Shown here: piece by piece, positions 22,978 through 37,173 of the stretch
How the letters are laid out: each line of letters starts with the position of its first letter
Numbering within the stretch: position 1 is the first letter of the stretch
IMG/VR virus record: IMGVR_UViG_3300048861_000143
Location: 25,078 to 89,077 of that record
Strand: one strand, 5' to 3'
Length of the DNA stretch: 64,000 bases
Origin: a virus
Translations under genes and position numbers: made by a program
Notes under the pieces: generated by a model
Told to the model about the DNA's origin: nothing
The model's input: only the letters and a program-made list of their open reading frames with translations
The model's database searches: none

Positions 22978-25900
22978 GTCGTTACCTGCTGAAGTTCGGT
23001 ATTGGAGAGAGCACGAGGCCAGTAGCGCAGGCGGCTCAGATAGCCGTTTTCAAGGCTGGTGTTGACCGAGTTCTGTCCGAGACGAAGCGTAGTCAATGAA
23101 GTGGGAAGCGTGCCGCTGATCGCGCCGACCGCGCCACCATTGAACGCGGCAGAAATTGCACTAGCGGCCGCGACCATGCCAGCCTTGAAGGGCACTCCTG
23201 GTGTGAAATTACCGGCAGGTGCCGAAGAGGTAGGCGTGCCTGCGGCGGATGCGGCGGCATTCAATACAGTCGTGCCTTGGTTCCGCAAGATGATGCGGTT
23301 CGCAGTAGTTCCGTCATCCAAAAGCGCAAGACCCCCGAGAAGTGCGCCGGGAAGTGATTGCGGGATCATCGCTGAAACAACAACACTACTGGCGCTCTGG
23401 TTGAACCATGAGCCGAGCGGCATCGCGGCTAGTTCCCCGCTCCGAGTCGCTACGCCGGGCGATCCGGCGGGCGGAAGAATAACAGAAGTTGCAAACGCAC
23501 CTTGTTCAAGCTGCGGAGCACCGATGCGCAGTGTGATATCGACCGGAACGCCCGAGGTCACACCATAGGACATCCATGGCATGACGAAGGCTACATTGGC
23601 TGCGGCAGATGCCAGGGACACGGTATAGCGCTGTGTGGCCAATGGAGCATTGGTCGGCGTTAGCGCCACGCTCACGTCACCGCCGATGGCGACCAGCCCC
23701 GAGTCATACTGACGGATGCGCGAAATGACGTTGTTAAAGCCGGCCAGTGATCCGGCCATAAGGCGGAGATATACAGAATGCGTCCACGCCTGTGATGCTG
23801 CTGATGCGATCGCTCCCGCCTGCTCGAACAGATACACGGCAAAGCCAGTGTTCGTGATGGTCGGAGTTCCCCATATTCGCACGTCGATGTAGGGGATTCC
23901 GGACTCACTACCCGTTCCCAAAATCGAGGCAGACAGTCCGCTCGATACGACGTTCGTCCCGCCCCAATTCGTCGGAGCCGTTCCGGGCGTCCCCGCGACC
24001 GCGCCTTCGCCCCTGGGATTTCGGATCGAGTTTGTTCTCTGCTCTTCGACTAGGAGACCCCGCGCAGCGAGGGTCGCCGGATCGTAGTCGAAGCGCGGCT
24101 GGTTCGCGACAGCTGATTGCAGCGTGCCTGTTCTGTCGAAGTAACTCGCGCCGGACGCCCGTGTGAACGCGATGCGGGGATCGAGCGGCGAGGAGGTCAG
24201 ATCTAGGTCGAGGGTCGTGTCCTGGGCATTGAGGCTCGTCACGATCGGAAGCTCGGTCGCGGAGAGCGCGCGCGGCCAGCAGCGCACGCGGCGCATGTGG
24301 CCGCCGATCTCGGCCCCGGTTCCCCAAGGCGCGCCGCCGATCGACAGCCGCGAAATCCACGGATAGGGGCCGTCGTTCATCGACGCCGAGGTAGCTGCGG
24401 AGCCGTTGCCGGAAGCCCGCATGGTCCCGGAGCCATAGGAAGCCGCCTGCCTATTCAGCACGTCCCCGAGGACGACCGCCCCTGTGTTCACCCCAGCGCT
24501 GGCGTTCTCGCCGATGGCAGCCAAGCCATTACCGACAAAATACAGCGAGTTTCCGAATGTGCCATCCGACATCCCAATTGGAACGGAGCTGCTGGGGGTC
24601 CGGGTGGTGCCGAAATCCGCGCAGAACGCGCCCTCCGCCGGGTTGAACCAGGAGCCCGCAGAGGTCGGGACGTAAGCTTGATCCGCGGCCCGGGTGGCGA
24701 CGGCCGGCGTGCCGGCAGCCGGAAGGATGAGCGAGGTCGGGAATGCGCCGAGTTCAAGCTGGGGACCGCCGACCCGGATTGTGAAATCGGCTGCGGCCGA
24801 CGTATTGAACCGAAGCCCCAAAGCAACAAACGCCGTGCTCGCCGGCGCAGTGGCAGTAATCGCTACGCGCGCCAGCGTGCTTGATGGCGTGAATATCGTC
24901 CACGTCTGCGCCAGGAATGTCTGGGACGCATCATAGAACCGGAGGGTGAGTTCGATATCGGTGAGGTTGGCGATCGAGCCGGCGGCCAGCTTTGCGTAAA
25001 TCGAACCGCTCCAGACCTGCGTAGCCGAGGCTGCGACCGCATTAACGGCCTCGAAAAGAAAAGTTGCCGCAGACATAACGGAGGCAGACGCGAACCGCAC
25101 GTCGGCGCATGTCATGCCCTGCTCAGTAGCGGTCGCAATACTAGTTTGAGCGGTGCCTTGCCCCCAGTTCGTCGGGGACGTCCCGGGCGAACCGGCAACC
25201 GCGCCTTCCGCTCGCGGATTGCGGATGGCATTGGTCCGCTGTTCCTCGATCAGGAGTCCGAGCGCGGTCGCGCCGAGTGTGACGACCGATCCAGAGGTCG
25301 GGATAAAGGGCGTTGCTTCAAAGCCTCGCTCTAGCTGCGGGGAACCGACGCGGAAAGTTGCGTTGATGACAGCACCGGACGTTACTCCGAACCTGTAACC
25401 AACGCTCACCGTAGTCGCCCCGGCATTGGGCGTGTAGGTCATCGAGAAGCGCTGCGTATCAAGGGCGGCGGTTGTCGGGGCTAGGGCGCTTCCATTGGCC
25501 GCGCCTGCGGCATTGTCATCAAAGCGAAGAGACGGGGTAACATTGAGCGTGCCCGAGATCAAACGCGCATAGGAGGAAAGGGTCAAAACCGAGTTGCCGG
25601 CATAGGGCGCTACCGTATCGAACCTCACATAAAGGCCGAAGGTGTTAGTCGCTGTTCCGGCGATGTTGACCTCAATATAAGGGATACCATTCTCAATGCC
25701 AAAGCCCGTCTGAGTCATGGTGACACCGAAGCCGGCAGTCCCCATTGCAGGGCTGGCCGCCCAGTTCGTGGGCAGTGTTCCGGCGCCGACGCCCTGCAAT
25801 GTCGAGTTACGTATCCAGTTCGTCCGCCCAGCCGGCGTCGGCCCGTAGTCGATCCGCGGCGCGTTGTTCGCTGCGGTCTTGAGGGTGCCCGTCGCGTCGA

Positions 25901-33315: not shown

Positions 33316-34794
33316 TTACGCGGTCGGCGCTTTTGCGCGGCGCGGTCGGCGGGGCAGCGGGGTCTGGTCTATCGGCGGCCGCTCAACGTGAGCCGCGACT
33401 GCCGTCTCTTCCCAGAGCTCATCGTGCGAGGCCGTCGGGTCGTTCAGCATCTTCACGGCCAAGTTCGGATCGACGGCCTTTTCCTGAGCCAGCATCGGCT
33501 CGGCCTTTTCGCCCTTGTGGCTCTCGAGGATCTGCTCGAGGCCAGGATATGTGCCGTCGTCGATCAGCTGGGCCTGGACCGCCTCCTGCAGGGCGATCGG
33601 CGGCATAACACCGACCACCGAGTAGATCTGGCTGGTCTGGGCCTTCTGCATGGCCACAGCCGCTTTCTCTCGATCGCTCATCTGCCAGAGCGGGTTCCAC
33701 TCGTACCAGACGTCAGAGGGCTTGGCGCCAGCGTGCCGGATCAGAACCTGGTCGAGCCGGTTGAGCGCCGGCCCCATCTCCGTCTTCTGCTTGCTGCTCA
33801 GCGTGTCGTAGTAGTGCCGAAGATCAGCCTCACCGGTGGAGTTCAAGCCAGTGGGCGACTTGCCTAGCAGCCGGGTGACCGGCATGTTCGCCGCGCCCGC
33901 CGCGATCTCCATGAACTTGGCGATCACCTCCGGGTAGCCCGCGAAGTGAAGCTGCTTCTGGTCCCACTCCTCAAGCGCATCCATCAGCAAGGCCGAGTTG
34001 ATCGACTTGCCGCGCTGAGCCAGCGCGAGACGGGCGAGGAGCTTGTTCCGGTATTCCGGGTTGCTGACGTTCTGCGTCAGGCCCGGGATCTTGATGATGT
34101 CGACCTTCGCTTCGTAGGCGAGCGAGGCGATGTTGGACGTGACCGAGGCGGCGTTACGCACCGCGTCATAGACGCGCTGCAGGATCGGGTGTCCCCAGCC
34201 GTCGATCGACCAGGTGAGCTCGAGCTGCTGGATGCCCTGGAAGCGGACGATCCGGCTCGGGTGAATGAGCACCGGGCCGAAGCTTGACGCCAGGCTGGGG
34301 TCAGCCGCGCCGCCAGCGGTCAGCTGATACATGGTCGGCTCGCCGAACGTGGGCGACACCGGATCACGGTCGAGGTCGCCTGCGAAGATCTCCCACCGCG
34401 AGAGCGAGTGCAGATACTTGATCCCACCCTTCTGGACCGACTCAGGATCCAAAGGCTTCGACGGGTCCGGGTCGCCGGTTCCGATCAGCAGGGCCGATCC
34501 GCCGTAGAGGCGAGCCTGCTTCAGGCAGCGGTTGACCACCTGGACGACGTTGAGCTGCTTTTCCGAGGTCTCGATCGACTTCAGGTGCCGCTTGCCGGCT
34601 TTCCAGGAGCGCCACTCGCGCGTCATGTCGTCCGCGGGAGCGTCGACAATCGTGCCGGCGATCCAGTCCGACGTGTACATGTTCAGCAGCTCGGGGCGGC
34701 CGAGAAGATTGCCGGTGAACGTCGAAAACGTCGCCTTGTCGCGGTCGGTTCCGAGCCCGGAGACTAGGTTCTGGAGCGAGTCGGAGAACTGCAT
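33316..34794 (-). CDS. Portal protein (DUF1073 family)
   Basis: 492 aa; LQNLVSGLGTDRDK, MYTSDWIAGTIVDAPADDMTREW, MPVTRLLGKSPTGLNSTGEADL.HYYD. Confidence 0.92.
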   Translation of the reverse strand: MQFSDSLQNLVSGLGTDRDKATFSTFTGNLLGRPELLNMYTSDWIAGTIVDAPADDMTREWRSWKAGKRHLKSIETSEKQLNVVQVVNRCLKQARLYGGSALLIGTGDPDPSKPLDPESVQKGGIKYLHSLSRWEIFAGDLDRDPVSPTFGEPTMYQLTAGGAADPSLASSFGPVLIHPSRIVRFQGIQQLELTWSIDGWGHPILQRVYDAVRNAASVTSNIASLAYEAKVDIIKIPGLTQNVSNPEYRNKLLARLALAQRGKSINSALLMDALEEWDQKQLHFAGYPEVIAKFMEIAAGAANMPVTRLLGKSPTGLNSTGEADLRHYYDTLSSKQKTEMGPALNRLDQVLIRHAGAKPSDVWYEWNPLWQMSDREKAAVAMQKAQTSQIYSVVGVMPPIALQEAVQAQLIDDGTYPGLEQILESHKGEKAEPMLAQEKAVDPNLAVKMLNDPTASHDELWEETAVAAHVERPPIDQTPLPRRPRRAKAPTA

Positions 34795-34810: not shown

Positions 34811-36283
34811 TCAGGTCAATGCCCCCACCCAGCTCATGGAAGCGTCGTAGACGAACTCGCCAAGCTGCCCGAAGGCTCTGGATGTGGCGTCGGCGGTGTC
34901 GTCCTTCGCAGCTACCGGGAAAGCCTCCAGACGCTCAAACCAGGCCTTGTTCCACTCGCCAGGCACGTAGAGCACGTTGCCGGCCTCGCACTGCGCCGAG
35001 AACGGCGAAAAACGGCCGATTTTGGCGGCCTTTGCCGCCGATCCGACCGCGGCCGCAGTGGCGGCGCGGCTCTCCGTCGAGGTCCGAACGTCGTAGCCGA
35101 CCAGCAGCTTCGTGAAGGCTGCCGCCTGCGCTTTCCCCGCCGCCGCAGGGTCCTGCGGGATCGAGATCGTCACGTAGCGGCCGCTGTCCTTGTCCTGCTT
35201 CGCGACACGAAGAATCTCGTTCTCAACTTCGCTCGGGCTGCCTTGAAGGAACGTGTGGTCGGCGATGATGAAGCGTCCATCGAGCGTGCGCCCGATCAGA
35301 ACCGACTCCGTGAAGTCGGGATTGTTCGTCGCGGTCTTCGGTGTCGACGCCAAATCCCAGCCCCGCGCCCAGATAGTCGCGTCGGGGATCATCTGCGGAG
35401 CGATCGGCTTCAGCCATTTGCGCTGGAAGTAGAGCCCGGCTGCTTGCCGGATTTTCCAGTTGCCGCCCAACAGGCGCTCGCGCTCAACCGTCGGCAGGGC
35501 GAGAAGGTTCGCCATGTAGCCGGGATCGGCCTTCATCAGCGCCTTGTTGTCGGTCAAGGTCGCCGGGATGAAGGTCACCGACTTCGGCAGGATCTGCTCG
35601 GCCGGCATCTTGCCGGTGAATTTGTCGACCAGCTCTTGCCGGGTGTCGGCCCAGTGCAGCGTGTCATTGACCCGAAGAAGCCAGCGAAGCACGCCGGCCC
35701 GCTCCTGGATGGGAAGGCCGTCTTCGCCGAGCCACCATTCGATGAAGTTCGCCACCCAACTATCGGCGTCGGGGTTGCACGTCGCTCGGACGTAGCCCTT
35801 CACGCCGGAGGTGGAGCGATTCCGGCTGACCATGTACCAGAACATCGACTCGCTGAAATGCGTCAGCTCGTCGAAACACAGGAGCGGGATTTCCGCCCCC
35901 TGGTATTCGTTCTTCGTCTTCTCGTGCTCAAGGTGAGCGAACTTGATCCGGCCGCCCTTGGGCCAGATCCACTCGAGAGACTGCACGCGAGGATGCGCGC
36001 CTAGCTTGGGGTAGAGATTGCCCGCAGCGTCCCACAAGCCACCAGGGTTTGTGACCTGCGTAGTAGTCCGCCGAAAGAAGACCGCCCGGAATTTCGCGTT
36101 ACTGACAACGTGTCGAAGTGGCTCCAGAAGGAGCGCCCATGTCTTGCTTCAGTGCCCCGCAGATTGCGCCGCGGGGCGTCATAAGCCTCCCCCAGCCGAA
36201 CCGCCGTAAATAGCAATGTCTGCCGAGCTCGACAGGAACACGCTCTGGGGTCCGGGCTGGGGGGAAATCCGTTCGGGAGGCAT
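34811..36283 (-). CDS. terL: Terminase large subunit, interrupted in Walker A by a 39-nt in-frame element (477 aa if removed)
   Basis: MPPERISPQPGPQSVFLSSSADIAIYGGSAGGG [13 codons] KTWALLLEPLRH...; Walker B LCFDELTHF; nuclease RGWDLAS, DDTADA. All in one frame. Confidence 0.9.
36146..36184 (-). other. 39-nt stop-containing hairpin insertion in terL (candidate bypass element or mini-intron)
   Basis: TTA TGA CGC CCC GCG GCG CAA TCT GCG GGG CAC TGA AGC lies between the Gly (GGC) and Lys (AAG) codons of GGGKT. Confidence 0.85.
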
Positions 36284-36374
36284 GCTGGCCCTTCGACGGA
36301 GGGGGCGCCTCCGGTCCTGATCGTGAACTGATTGCGCGCTCGCGGTTCAATCCATTGAACTGCGAATTCGCAGT

Positions 36375-36536
36375 TCAGGGTCGCAGGCGAGCCGCGCGAA
36401 GAGTCACACGGTCCAAATGGTTGCGCAGAGCGTCGGGTCTGATGGGCAGACCGATCCAACACGCCAGGCGAGCGGCGCTCACATAGGGAGCCCACCACCA
36501 AGCGAATCTGATTTCGAACGTGAGTTCAGTCATCAT
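36375..36536 (-). CDS. Small hydrophobic protein between terS and terL
   Basis: MMTELTFEIRFAWWWAPYVSAARLACWIGL...; overlaps the terS stop. Confidence 0.45.
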   Translation of the reverse strand: MMTELTFEIRFAWWWAPYVSAARLACWIGLPIRPDALRNHLDRVTLRAARLRP

Positions 36537-37173
36537 CGTATTCGCTCTCAGGTTCCGCCTCGGGGAAGGCGTCGATCTCAGCGGCGATGTCCGCCAAGTT
36601 CTGTTCGATGGCCGGCATGAGAGCTGGGGAAACATCGCCCCTAGAATTGTCGGGCAGAACAATTTGAATTGCGTGCTCGACCGGGCCGCCCTCTTTGCCG
36701 GTTTGCTCGACGCGGCTGGTTTCGACGAAGCCCATCTTGGTCTTCGCCCAGAAGATCGCGGCAGTGGCAGTCGTTTTCAGCTCGGCCGGCCCGGTCGCCA
36801 TCTCGAACAGCTTCATGCCAACCTTGAGGTTGGCTTCGATCCGGCCGCGCTCGATGTCCTCGGAATAGTGCTTCCTCAGCGTCTCGTCCCCGATGTCGAG
36901 GAACTTCGCGATCGACTCGTTCGCGACCTGCATGCCGGCCAGCATCCAGACCTTCTTCCGATTATCGGGCGTCGGCTCGTGTGGCTTTCGGCCATTGATC
37001 AAGCCGGCGCGCTCGAGCTGCTGTGGGTAGTGCCGCCTCAGCGTCTCTTCGCCAATCCCCAACTGCTTCGCGATCTTCCAGAGAGGAACGTCGGCAGAGA
37101 GAAGCGTTTGGACGGCAAGGCGGTGCGCTTTGTTAGCGCGGTATGGAACTGACATCGGGTTCGTTTTCAGCAA
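36526..37173 (-). CDS. terS: Terminase small subunit with duplicated HTH
   Basis: IAKQLGIGEETLRRHY / IAKFLDIGDETLRKHY; AAIFWAKTKMG; EQTGKEGGPV. Confidence 0.85.
   Translation of the reverse strand: MLKTNPMSVPYRANKAHRLAVQTLLSADVPLWKIAKQLGIGEETLRRHYPQQLERAGLINGRKPHEPTPDNRKKVWMLAGMQVANESIAKFLDIGDETLRKHYSEDIERGRIEANLKVGMKLFEMATGPAELKTTATAAIFWAKTKMGFVETSRVEQTGKEGGPVEHAIQIVLPDNSRGDVSPALMPAIEQNLADIAAEIDAFPEAEPESEYDDD

Follow-up and report, generated by a model that had tools for sequence, protein, structure and literature searches.

The large terminase gene (terL) of a soil phage, viral record IMGVR_UViG_3300048861_000143, is interrupted within its Walker A motif by 39 nt that contain two in-frame stop codons. 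We propose that these 39 nt are probably a non-coding gap in a working terL, skipped by programmed translational bypassing in which ribosomes would leave the message at a GGC codon, land on an AGC triplet and resume decoding at AAG. The record is 149.8 kb long, has 64% G+C and is rated 97% complete; a window of 64,000 nt (positions 25,078–89,077 of the record) was analysed, and all coordinates below follow the numbering of this window. The support for bypassing, as read from the sequences, is all comparative.

A 39-nt insert splits the Walker A motif of terL

The terL gene lies on the minus strand, with its ATG at 36283 and its stop codon at 34813–34811. Read without correction, its frame gives MPPERISPQPGPQSVFLSSSADIAIYGGSAGGG, Leu, a stop, nine sense codons, a second stop, Ser and then KTWALLLEPLRHV... 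over 444 open codons. The first coding segment (36185..36283, minus strand) comprises 33 codons, MPPERISPQPGPQ...YGGSAGGG, encodes an N-terminal peptide that aligns with intact relatives and ends at the take-off GGC (36187–36185). On the minus strand, this codon is followed by TTA (36184–36182), TGA (36181–36179), a hairpin, a second TGA (36151–36149) and AGC (36148–36146), after which the gene continues from 36145 as AAG ACA TGG (KTW). The second coding segment (34811..36145) begins with the resume codon AAG (36145–36143), the Lys of GK[ST], runs for 444 codons to the stop, and has a ratio of nonsynonymous to synonymous substitution (dN/dS) of 0.12–0.23 against relatives.

The interruption therefore separates the last (third) Gly of the TerL Walker A motif, or P-loop, from the Lys, and falls between their codons. 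Dropping exactly 36146–36184 yields a TerL of 477 aa (33 + 444 residues) that is colinear with intact relatives. A first-pass annotation of the window, made from the sequence alone, had described the split and had predicted that removal of 39 nt would restore both the P-loop GGSAGGGKT and a 477-aa protein; every detail was found to be correct when the sequence was re-read, and the restored protein has full-length matches to Terminase_6N (1e-29) and Terminase_6C (5e-14).

The gap (36146..36184, minus strand) consists of a 7-nt leader (TTA TGA C), the hairpin, 5 nt, and the near-cognate landing triplet AGC. The hairpin (36154..36177) has arms at 36177–36169 and 36162–36154 around a loop at 36168–36163, with 9 bp that include one G.U; its folding energy is -19.2 kcal/mol (z = -3.0). 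With the flanks included, an outer GCUU/AAGC helix forms as had been anticipated, joining the two junctions, at -23 kcal/mol (z = -3.4); none of 200 shuffled sequences was as stable. Immediately 3′ of the take-off codon stand TTA and TGA (36179..36184). TTA is the phage's rarest Leu codon, used 2 times in 5479 codons of its large genes (0.37 per 1000), so that the A site at take-off holds a slow codon, UUA, followed by UGA. A Shine-Dalgarno (SD)-like run, GGGGGAGG (36186..36193), ends within the take-off codon. The proposed landing triplet AGC (36146..36148) pairs with the Gly-GCC anticodon at positions 2 and 3, and the GGGG run noted earlier is indeed present 6 nt upstream of it.

A 106.7-kb soil-metagenome contig, the probable source of the record, is identical across the stretch. 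A 242-nt contig from an RNA (metatranscriptomic) library of a different study covers 36053–36293 without any difference, gap or joint, and retains all 39 nt unspliced; hence, the insert is not an assembly error. This contig is the sole piece of the phage in that metatranscriptome run (X2). It spans from 10 nt upstream of the terL ATG to about 90 nt beyond the gap, and may stem from a short transcript, from a stable fragment or from carried-over DNA.

Several known kinds of element were considered for the insert and rejected. No further copy of the hairpin exists in the window or in the 149.8-kb record, and a single-copy hairpin is not a repeat element, which excludes repetitive palindromes of the REP or MITE type (repetitive extragenic palindrome or miniature inverted-repeat transposable element). 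The hairpin has no match as a terminator, and the search against Rfam families gave a chance-level match only. A self-splicing intron or intein is excluded by the length of 39 nt with in-frame stops, by the lack of an Rfam match and by the unspliced RNA-library contig. The window holds no tRNA gene that might decode UUA or suppress UGA.

Related terL genes carry gaps at the same junction

Gap forms were gathered by reading the DNA of N-truncated relatives and by running two scans with degenerate patterns that were anchored in the motifs on either side. This gave 17 distinct forms of 4–45 nt (4, 5, 6, 7, 8, 39, 41 and 45 nt), all at the Gly-Lys junction of related terL genes. The 4-nt gaps are TGAA, TGAC and TAGC; those of 5 nt are TAGGT, TAGGC, TAGGA and TGAGC, with TAGGT found also behind a different take-off codon; those of 6 nt are TAGCGA (in six diverged lineages) and TGACGC; those of 7 nt are AGTAGAC and TAAGGGC; and those of 8 nt are TGACTGGT and TGAATGGA. 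The gap of 39 nt is that of this window, while those of 41 and 45 nt belong to the loci L251 and L003, respectively. All complete frames downstream of a gap are open, over 409–490 codons.

Among database TerL proteins, the nearest (60–74% identity) are often N-truncated, while the remoter ones (56–59%) all have an intact P-loop; at least 10 of the roughly 30 closest relatives are N-truncated because of gaps. Of about 150 relatives sampled without bias, 144 are uninterrupted; gaps are therefore the exception, and they cluster in the clade to which the window belongs. The archaeal Methanoculleus viruses L4768 and Blf4 come nearer than most isolates of bacterial phages, with a TerL that is 44% identical to that of the window across 97% of the length.

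The gaps share a signature, tallied over 16 forms (the 41-nt gap of L251 was found later; apart from opening with a codon other than a stop, it fits the tallies). A stop codon stands first, right after the Gly codon, in 13 of the 16, when base composition leads one to expect 2.7% (p ~ 2e-18). The triplet that precedes Lys shares two or three bases, position for position, with the take-off Gly codon in every one of the 16. Eight of the forms have a Gly codon there, with GGT..GGT and GGC..GGC covarying, and cognate take-off/landing pairs are thus present in relatives as GGT/GGT, GGC/GGC and GGC/GGT. AGC, the final gap triplet of the window, also ends the gaps of L251, L078 and L081. Gap lengths cover all three frame classes. 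Hence, no single frameshift or read-through event would rescue the whole set, while a jump to the Lys codon rescues every member.

A further common feature lies upstream. In eight gap-bearing genes that were found without use of this motif, a GGGGG run abuts the take-off codon in all eight, compared with 41 of the 144 intact relatives (Fisher p = 8e-5). The run arises in all eight from glycines coded GGG-GG(C/A)-GGN, and it is missing from L244 and L245, the intact sisters of two gap-bearing genes. In the frameshifting of release factor 2 (RF2, prfB), forward movement of the mRNA is favoured when an SD-like sequence stands very near the P site and a stop codon occupies the A site. As the whole family conserves the 33 N-terminal residues, with or without a gap, their conservation is uninformative about any nascent-peptide signal.

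A homologous hairpin gap is retained in L251

The closest counterpart of the window gap occurs in L251, a 26.8-kb metagenome contig whose TerL is 65% identical to that of the window over 441 codons. The two genes are far apart at silent positions: fourfold-degenerate sites are 39.5% identical, the proportion of synonymous differences (pS) is 0.685, which is near saturation, and dN/dS is 0.16. Nevertheless, L251 carries a homologous gap of 41 nt behind the same take-off context, GGGGGAGGC. Its stem is identical to that of the window at 17 of 18 positions, and the lone difference, C to U, converts C-G to U.G and so keeps the pairing. The tail of the gap follows the same pattern (A-N-U-N-A, AGC, then AA(G/A) ACA TGG). 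The 7-nt leaders have only 2 of 7 bases in common, and the loops differ in both sequence and length.

In L003 (IMGVR_UViG_3300018046_000142), an unrelated 45-nt gap shows the same layout: the take-off codon is followed after 7 nt by a GC-rich stem-loop (-21.7 kcal/mol, z -3.4), and 4 nt then separate this stem-loop from a Gly codon and AAG. The first-pass annotation had argued that a structure-keeping insert of variable sequence at the same site in relatives would speak for function, and had feared a lesion unique to this genome. Both relatives match the former, L251 with a kept stem between a diverged leader and loop and L003 with an unrelated hairpin, and the homologous gap of L251 removes the latter objection. 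Taken together, these comparisons indicate that the window gap is of old date and has been conserved. No other member of the window's hairpin type came up when viral contigs were scanned for the exact pattern, and the scans for long gaps recovered only L003.

L003 also carries an in-frame intein of 385 residues at Walker B (1638–2792), besides its P-loop gap. The intein starts CCQEDERV and ends ...VNQN before CFDELTHF, and the downstream terL frame that includes it runs for 843 codons without a stop. A similar intein C-terminus is found at the start of P0024 (P0024/L249).

Short gaps are retained in the same manner. L022 and L076 share the gap TAGGC at a synonymous divergence (dS) of 1.14 and a dN/dS of 0.058; L002 and L007 share TAGCGA at pS 0.67 and dN/dS 0.09; L063 and L078, which have different gaps, are at dS 2.2 and dN/dS 0.09. 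With dN/dS at 0.06–0.16, the sequences indicate that gap-bearing terL genes remain open and under purifying selection.

A model for the proposed bypassing

In the model that we favour, the ribosome would translate the 33 codons of the first segment and come to hold peptidyl-tRNA-Gly (GCC anticodon) on the GGC at 36187–36185, with the very rare UUA in the A site and UGA next. The SD-like run GGGGGAGG would abut the P site from behind and pair with the anti-SD, whereupon the peptidyl-tRNA would unpair and the mRNA slide. Both GGC triplets within the gap, which are cognate to this tRNA, sit in the hairpin stem, and the 9-bp hairpin may shield them. Past the stem, the accessible triplets would be those in ACUGAAGC, of which AGC is the best anticodon partner and the first accessible near-cognate one; the GGGG that lies 6 nt upstream of it is placed like the GAG of T4 gene 60. 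Decoding would then restart at AAG to give a TerL of 477 aa whose GGSAGGGKT P-loop is normal.

Ribosomes that fail to take off would decode UUA and stop at UGA, releasing a 34-residue peptide. Since ribosomes that decode UUA terminate, the gap should lower the yield of TerL, and it probably throttles TerL output. By way of speculation, the yield could depend on the activities of tRNA-Leu(UAA) and of release factors.

Alternative explanations

An inactivating insertion is an unlikely explanation, and yet the best of the alternatives. On this account, terL is dead in a decaying or helper-dependent element, and the likeness to bypassing reflects a mutational hot spot, for instance repair scars at sites cut by homing endonucleases. 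Several observations weigh against bypassing, and a number of them suit a dead gene. The take-off/landing pair of the window, GGC/AGC, is non-cognate (2 of 3 positions pair), and the gap itself contains two cognate GGC triplets, which compete with AGC and would give dead-end products if sampled. The stop codon of the window does not immediately follow the take-off codon, and the hairpin begins 7 nt past that codon, unlike in gene 60, where it is at take-off. The one substitution between the two homologous stems is no true compensatory covariation, and conservation of the stem sequence could serve DNA or protein binding instead. No cultured phage with a gap is known in this TerL family, in which the nearest isolates are 57% identical; these nearest cultured phages seem uninterrupted, as judged from a single tblastn piece that begins at the Lys codon and from the annotated terL. 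The RNA-library contig has a depth of 2.6 and could be contaminating DNA. Finally, the gaps are scattered over the TerL tree, as repeated independent damage would be, and endonuclease genes adjoin several of them.

Decay is difficult to reconcile with what the relatives retain. L251 keeps a hairpin gap across saturated silent sites, with both frames open and at low dN/dS, and in the two genes the stem was preserved while the leader and loop drifted. Identical short gaps likewise persist at dN/dS 0.06–0.09. Random scars would not be expected to begin with a stop in 13 of 16 forms, nor to end with a matching triplet in all 16. In addition, the interrupted gene is the sole terL of an otherwise intact genome: no second terL of either major terminase family was found in the record, nor one of the PF03354 type. 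The other essential genes had been described earlier as looking intact, and the portal, protease, major head and tail genes do have full-length PHROG matches.

A less likely alternative is removal of the gap before translation, either by hairpin-guided RNA cleavage and ligation (a mini-intron) or by precise excision of the DNA in lytic growth. The outer GCUU/AAGC helix that brings the two junctions together would suit such a reaction, as would a stem that is conserved in sequence in the manner of a recognition site. We know of no such mechanism in bacteria, however, and gaps of 4–8 nt occur at the identical junction without any structure to guide splicing. Such short gaps cannot be introns, and the mini-intron reading is thereby left unsupported. 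The RNA-library contig holds all 39 nt without a joint, no Rfam family matches, and the DNA contig shows no variant that lacks the gap, although contigs drop rare variants. The first-pass annotation had envisaged a recoding or splicing switch; of these, it is bypassing that the inserts of relatives and the homologous hairpin strongly favour, and splicing that the short gaps and the RNA contig disfavour.

It is very improbable that stop read-through or frameshifting yields a TerL that still works with extra P-loop residues. In its favour, the gap of the window preserves the frame, and no stop codon is leakier than TGA. Against this, two TGA codons would have to be passed, and 13 residues would be inserted between the G and K of GxxxxGK[ST], where all 144 uninterrupted relatives keep a Gly codon immediately before the Lys codon. 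Related gaps fall in all frame classes, and the homologous gap of L251, at 41 nt, is not a multiple of three, which excludes read-through there.

An assembly or sequencing artefact has a negligible chance of explaining the gap: general caution alone speaks for it, as the run in which the stretch is best represented may be the source assembly, whereas the run of the second study has the identical stretch including the gap, and related gaps are seen in dozens of independent contigs.

Distribution of the gaps and their likely origin

On the TerL trees, gaps require at least 8–10 changes of state. The window and L251 are not sisters, as L251 groups with the intact P0019 (support 100/99). A single origin of the gaps is ruled out by these two observations. 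The sequences suggest that gaps either move between terL genes or often vanish by precise deletion or recombination. TAGCGA is present in widely separated TerL branches. It occurs in L002, L007, L075, L118 (an Acidocella metagenome-assembled genome), L250 and L252, six terL lineages that reach down to 57% protein identity and are scattered over the tree, and its spread across lineages implies transfer or strong convergence.

Several gaps adjoin a free-standing gene for an endonuclease-like protein. Such a gene immediately precedes terL, some 100 bp away from the gap, in L002 (2–1051, GIY-YIG + DUF4096), L007 (734–1831, GIY-YIG + DUF4096), L022 (5141–5770, NUMOD4 + HNH_3, I-HmuI-like) and L078 (2388–3086, minus strand, GIY-YIG); L070 is also among the gap loci with an adjoining endonuclease gene. 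Endonuclease homologues within 1.6 kb upstream were found at 8 of 24 gap loci versus 2 of 178 intact loci, a count that is somewhat biased in that the queries came from gap loci. Two intact loci with a homologue, L024 and L180, may show how an uninterrupted site evades cleavage. The endonuclease gene shared by L002 and L007 has diverged to about 50% DNA identity, and the arrangement is therefore old. A recent co-conversion tract at their gap was looked for and not seen, identity near the gap (0.8) being the same as in the rest of terL.

Next to the window gap there is no endonuclease gene: upstream lie a 242-nt spacer and the gene for the small terminase subunit (TerS), and the sole HNH gene lies at a distance of 3 kb. 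By analogy with T4 mobA and gene 60, the gaps likely originated when the target of a homing endonuclease, lying in conserved P-loop DNA, was disrupted; on this reading, the window phage has since lost its endonuclease gene. The association with endonucleases suggests that the gaps arose as scars conferring nuclease immunity and not as regulators such as the packaging switch that the first-pass annotation had envisaged.

Relation to known bypass systems

In the account of T4 gene 60 given in a recent preprint, a 50-nt bypass gap protects the gene from the neighbouring mobA nuclease, some genomes have lost the nuclease and kept the gap, and mobA/gene 60 elements are reported exclusively from the topoisomerase gene (bioRxiv 10.1101/2022.08.31.505936, citing Huang 1988; Bonocora 2011). 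The window shares with gene 60 an essential phage gene broken by a non-coding gap of tens of nt, a Gly codon as the take-off site with a stop or slow codon behind it, a hairpin in the gap, and an SD-like purine run 6 nt before landing. Several relatives of the window also have an endonuclease gene directly upstream, while the window itself would correspond to the state in which the gap is kept and the endonuclease lost. The two systems nevertheless differ. The interrupted gene is a topoisomerase there and the Walker A region of terL here, without sequence similarity; the take-off and landing triplets of the window (GGC/AGC) are unmatched; its main stem begins 7 nt after the take-off codon, while the gene 60 stem contains that codon; the window has no evident counterpart of the gene 60 nascent-peptide signal; and the endonucleases of the relatives are GIY-YIG or I-HmuI-like HNH proteins and not MobA.

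The other close precedent is the terminase of Streptomyces phage phiHau3, in which a 10-nt gap follows the Gly codon of KGWG, begins with UUA and gives way to resumption at AAG, and for which the junction peptide was detected by mass spectrometry in E. coli (PMC10732093). Candidate bypass sites of this type are also described in two prophages, one of them StrepC.1 (Smith 2013; PMC10732093; PMC5009743), and our survey of the literature on bypassing and terminases gave no precedent besides phiHau3 and these two. In phiHau3, g6 ends ...KGWG and g7 begins KD..., with AAG 3′ to the site of landing; we infer that KGWG/K is its Walker A motif, a point on which the paper is silent. Both systems therefore concern a large terminase with a gap directly after the Gly of ...G-x-G/K..., UUA as the first gap codon and resumption at AAG, and an SD-like element and local structure have been proposed as stimulators in phiHau3 as well. 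Unlike the window, phiHau3 has a terminase of another family with a second gap elsewhere in the gene, and its 10-nt gaps are out of frame, occur in 3/100 genes and are tied to the Streptomyces bldA/UUA system. In the window, the gap measures 39 nt, includes a conserved hairpin and interrupts a TerL of the Terminase_6 type, in a phage that has alphaproteobacterial prophages as relatives; this insert differs from that of phiHau3 in length and sequence, and belongs to the 4–45-nt series of mostly stop-headed gaps.

The short gaps of the relatives have a different parallel. Synthetic constructs in E. coli, as summarised in a review, support hops of +5 and +6 in which peptidyl-tRNA crosses a stop and re-pairs with a matched codon (Weiss et al. 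1987, via PMC5009743), and no natural in-frame stop-hops were known as of that 2016 review (PMC5009743). The relatives' GGT-TA-GGT-AAG, GGC-TA-GGC-AAG and GGA-TAG-CGA-AAG have the exact geometry of the constructs as summarised; they differ in being natural and conserved, and the window gap is far longer and structured. The same review describes the byp elements of Magnusiomyces capitatus mitochondria, GC-rich inserts of 27–55 nt that are skipped by ribosomes (Lang 2014, via PMC5009743). From this description, they are alike in having an unused or slow A-site codon and a mobile, patchy distribution, and unlike in occupying many sites and genes of one organelle with matched codons, compared with one junction of one gene in many phages here.

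Implications

Efficient long-range bypassing has for decades rested on a single model, T4 gene 60, with phiHau3 as a little-known candidate. We tentatively suggest, with appreciably less confidence than for bypassing of the window gap itself, that the TerL Walker A Gly-Lys junction hosts a class of natural hops that ranges from 4-nt stop-hops to hairpin gaps of 39–45 nt and was seeded and spread by homing endonucleases. The window would then represent a second independent lineage of long-range bypassing after gene 60, with near-cognate landing, an SD-like run at the P site, and a supply of terminase tied to the kinetics of rare codons and release factors. A graded natural series at one site, spanning 4–45 nt, with or without a hairpin and with cognate or merely near-cognate landing triplets, provides a comparative data set on what ribosomes need for take-off, sliding and landing. 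The link to endonucleases suggests a general route by which selfish nucleases may create recoding sites in essential phage genes.

There is also a practical consequence, as gene callers truncate gap-bearing terL genes. This leads to systematic mis-annotation, and such phages risk being scored as defective. For the window, gene callers give terL as a 408-aa product (P0001) that starts at an internal TTG (34811–36037).

Genomic context of terL

The terS gene (36526..37173) and the portal gene (33316..34794), both on the minus strand, lie upstream and downstream of terL, respectively, and no homing endonuclease gene is present in the 242-nt spacer between terS and terL. Full-length PHROG matches around terL also include an HNH protein, a ParB-methyltransferase and TerS. 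Within the spacer are a perfect palindrome of 20 bp (GAACTGCGAATTCGCAGTTC, 36357–36376) and a small GGAGG...CCTCC hairpin (36298–36312), which could be an operator or the leftover of a lost cassette. No such spacer exists in L244, an intact relative in which terL abuts terS.

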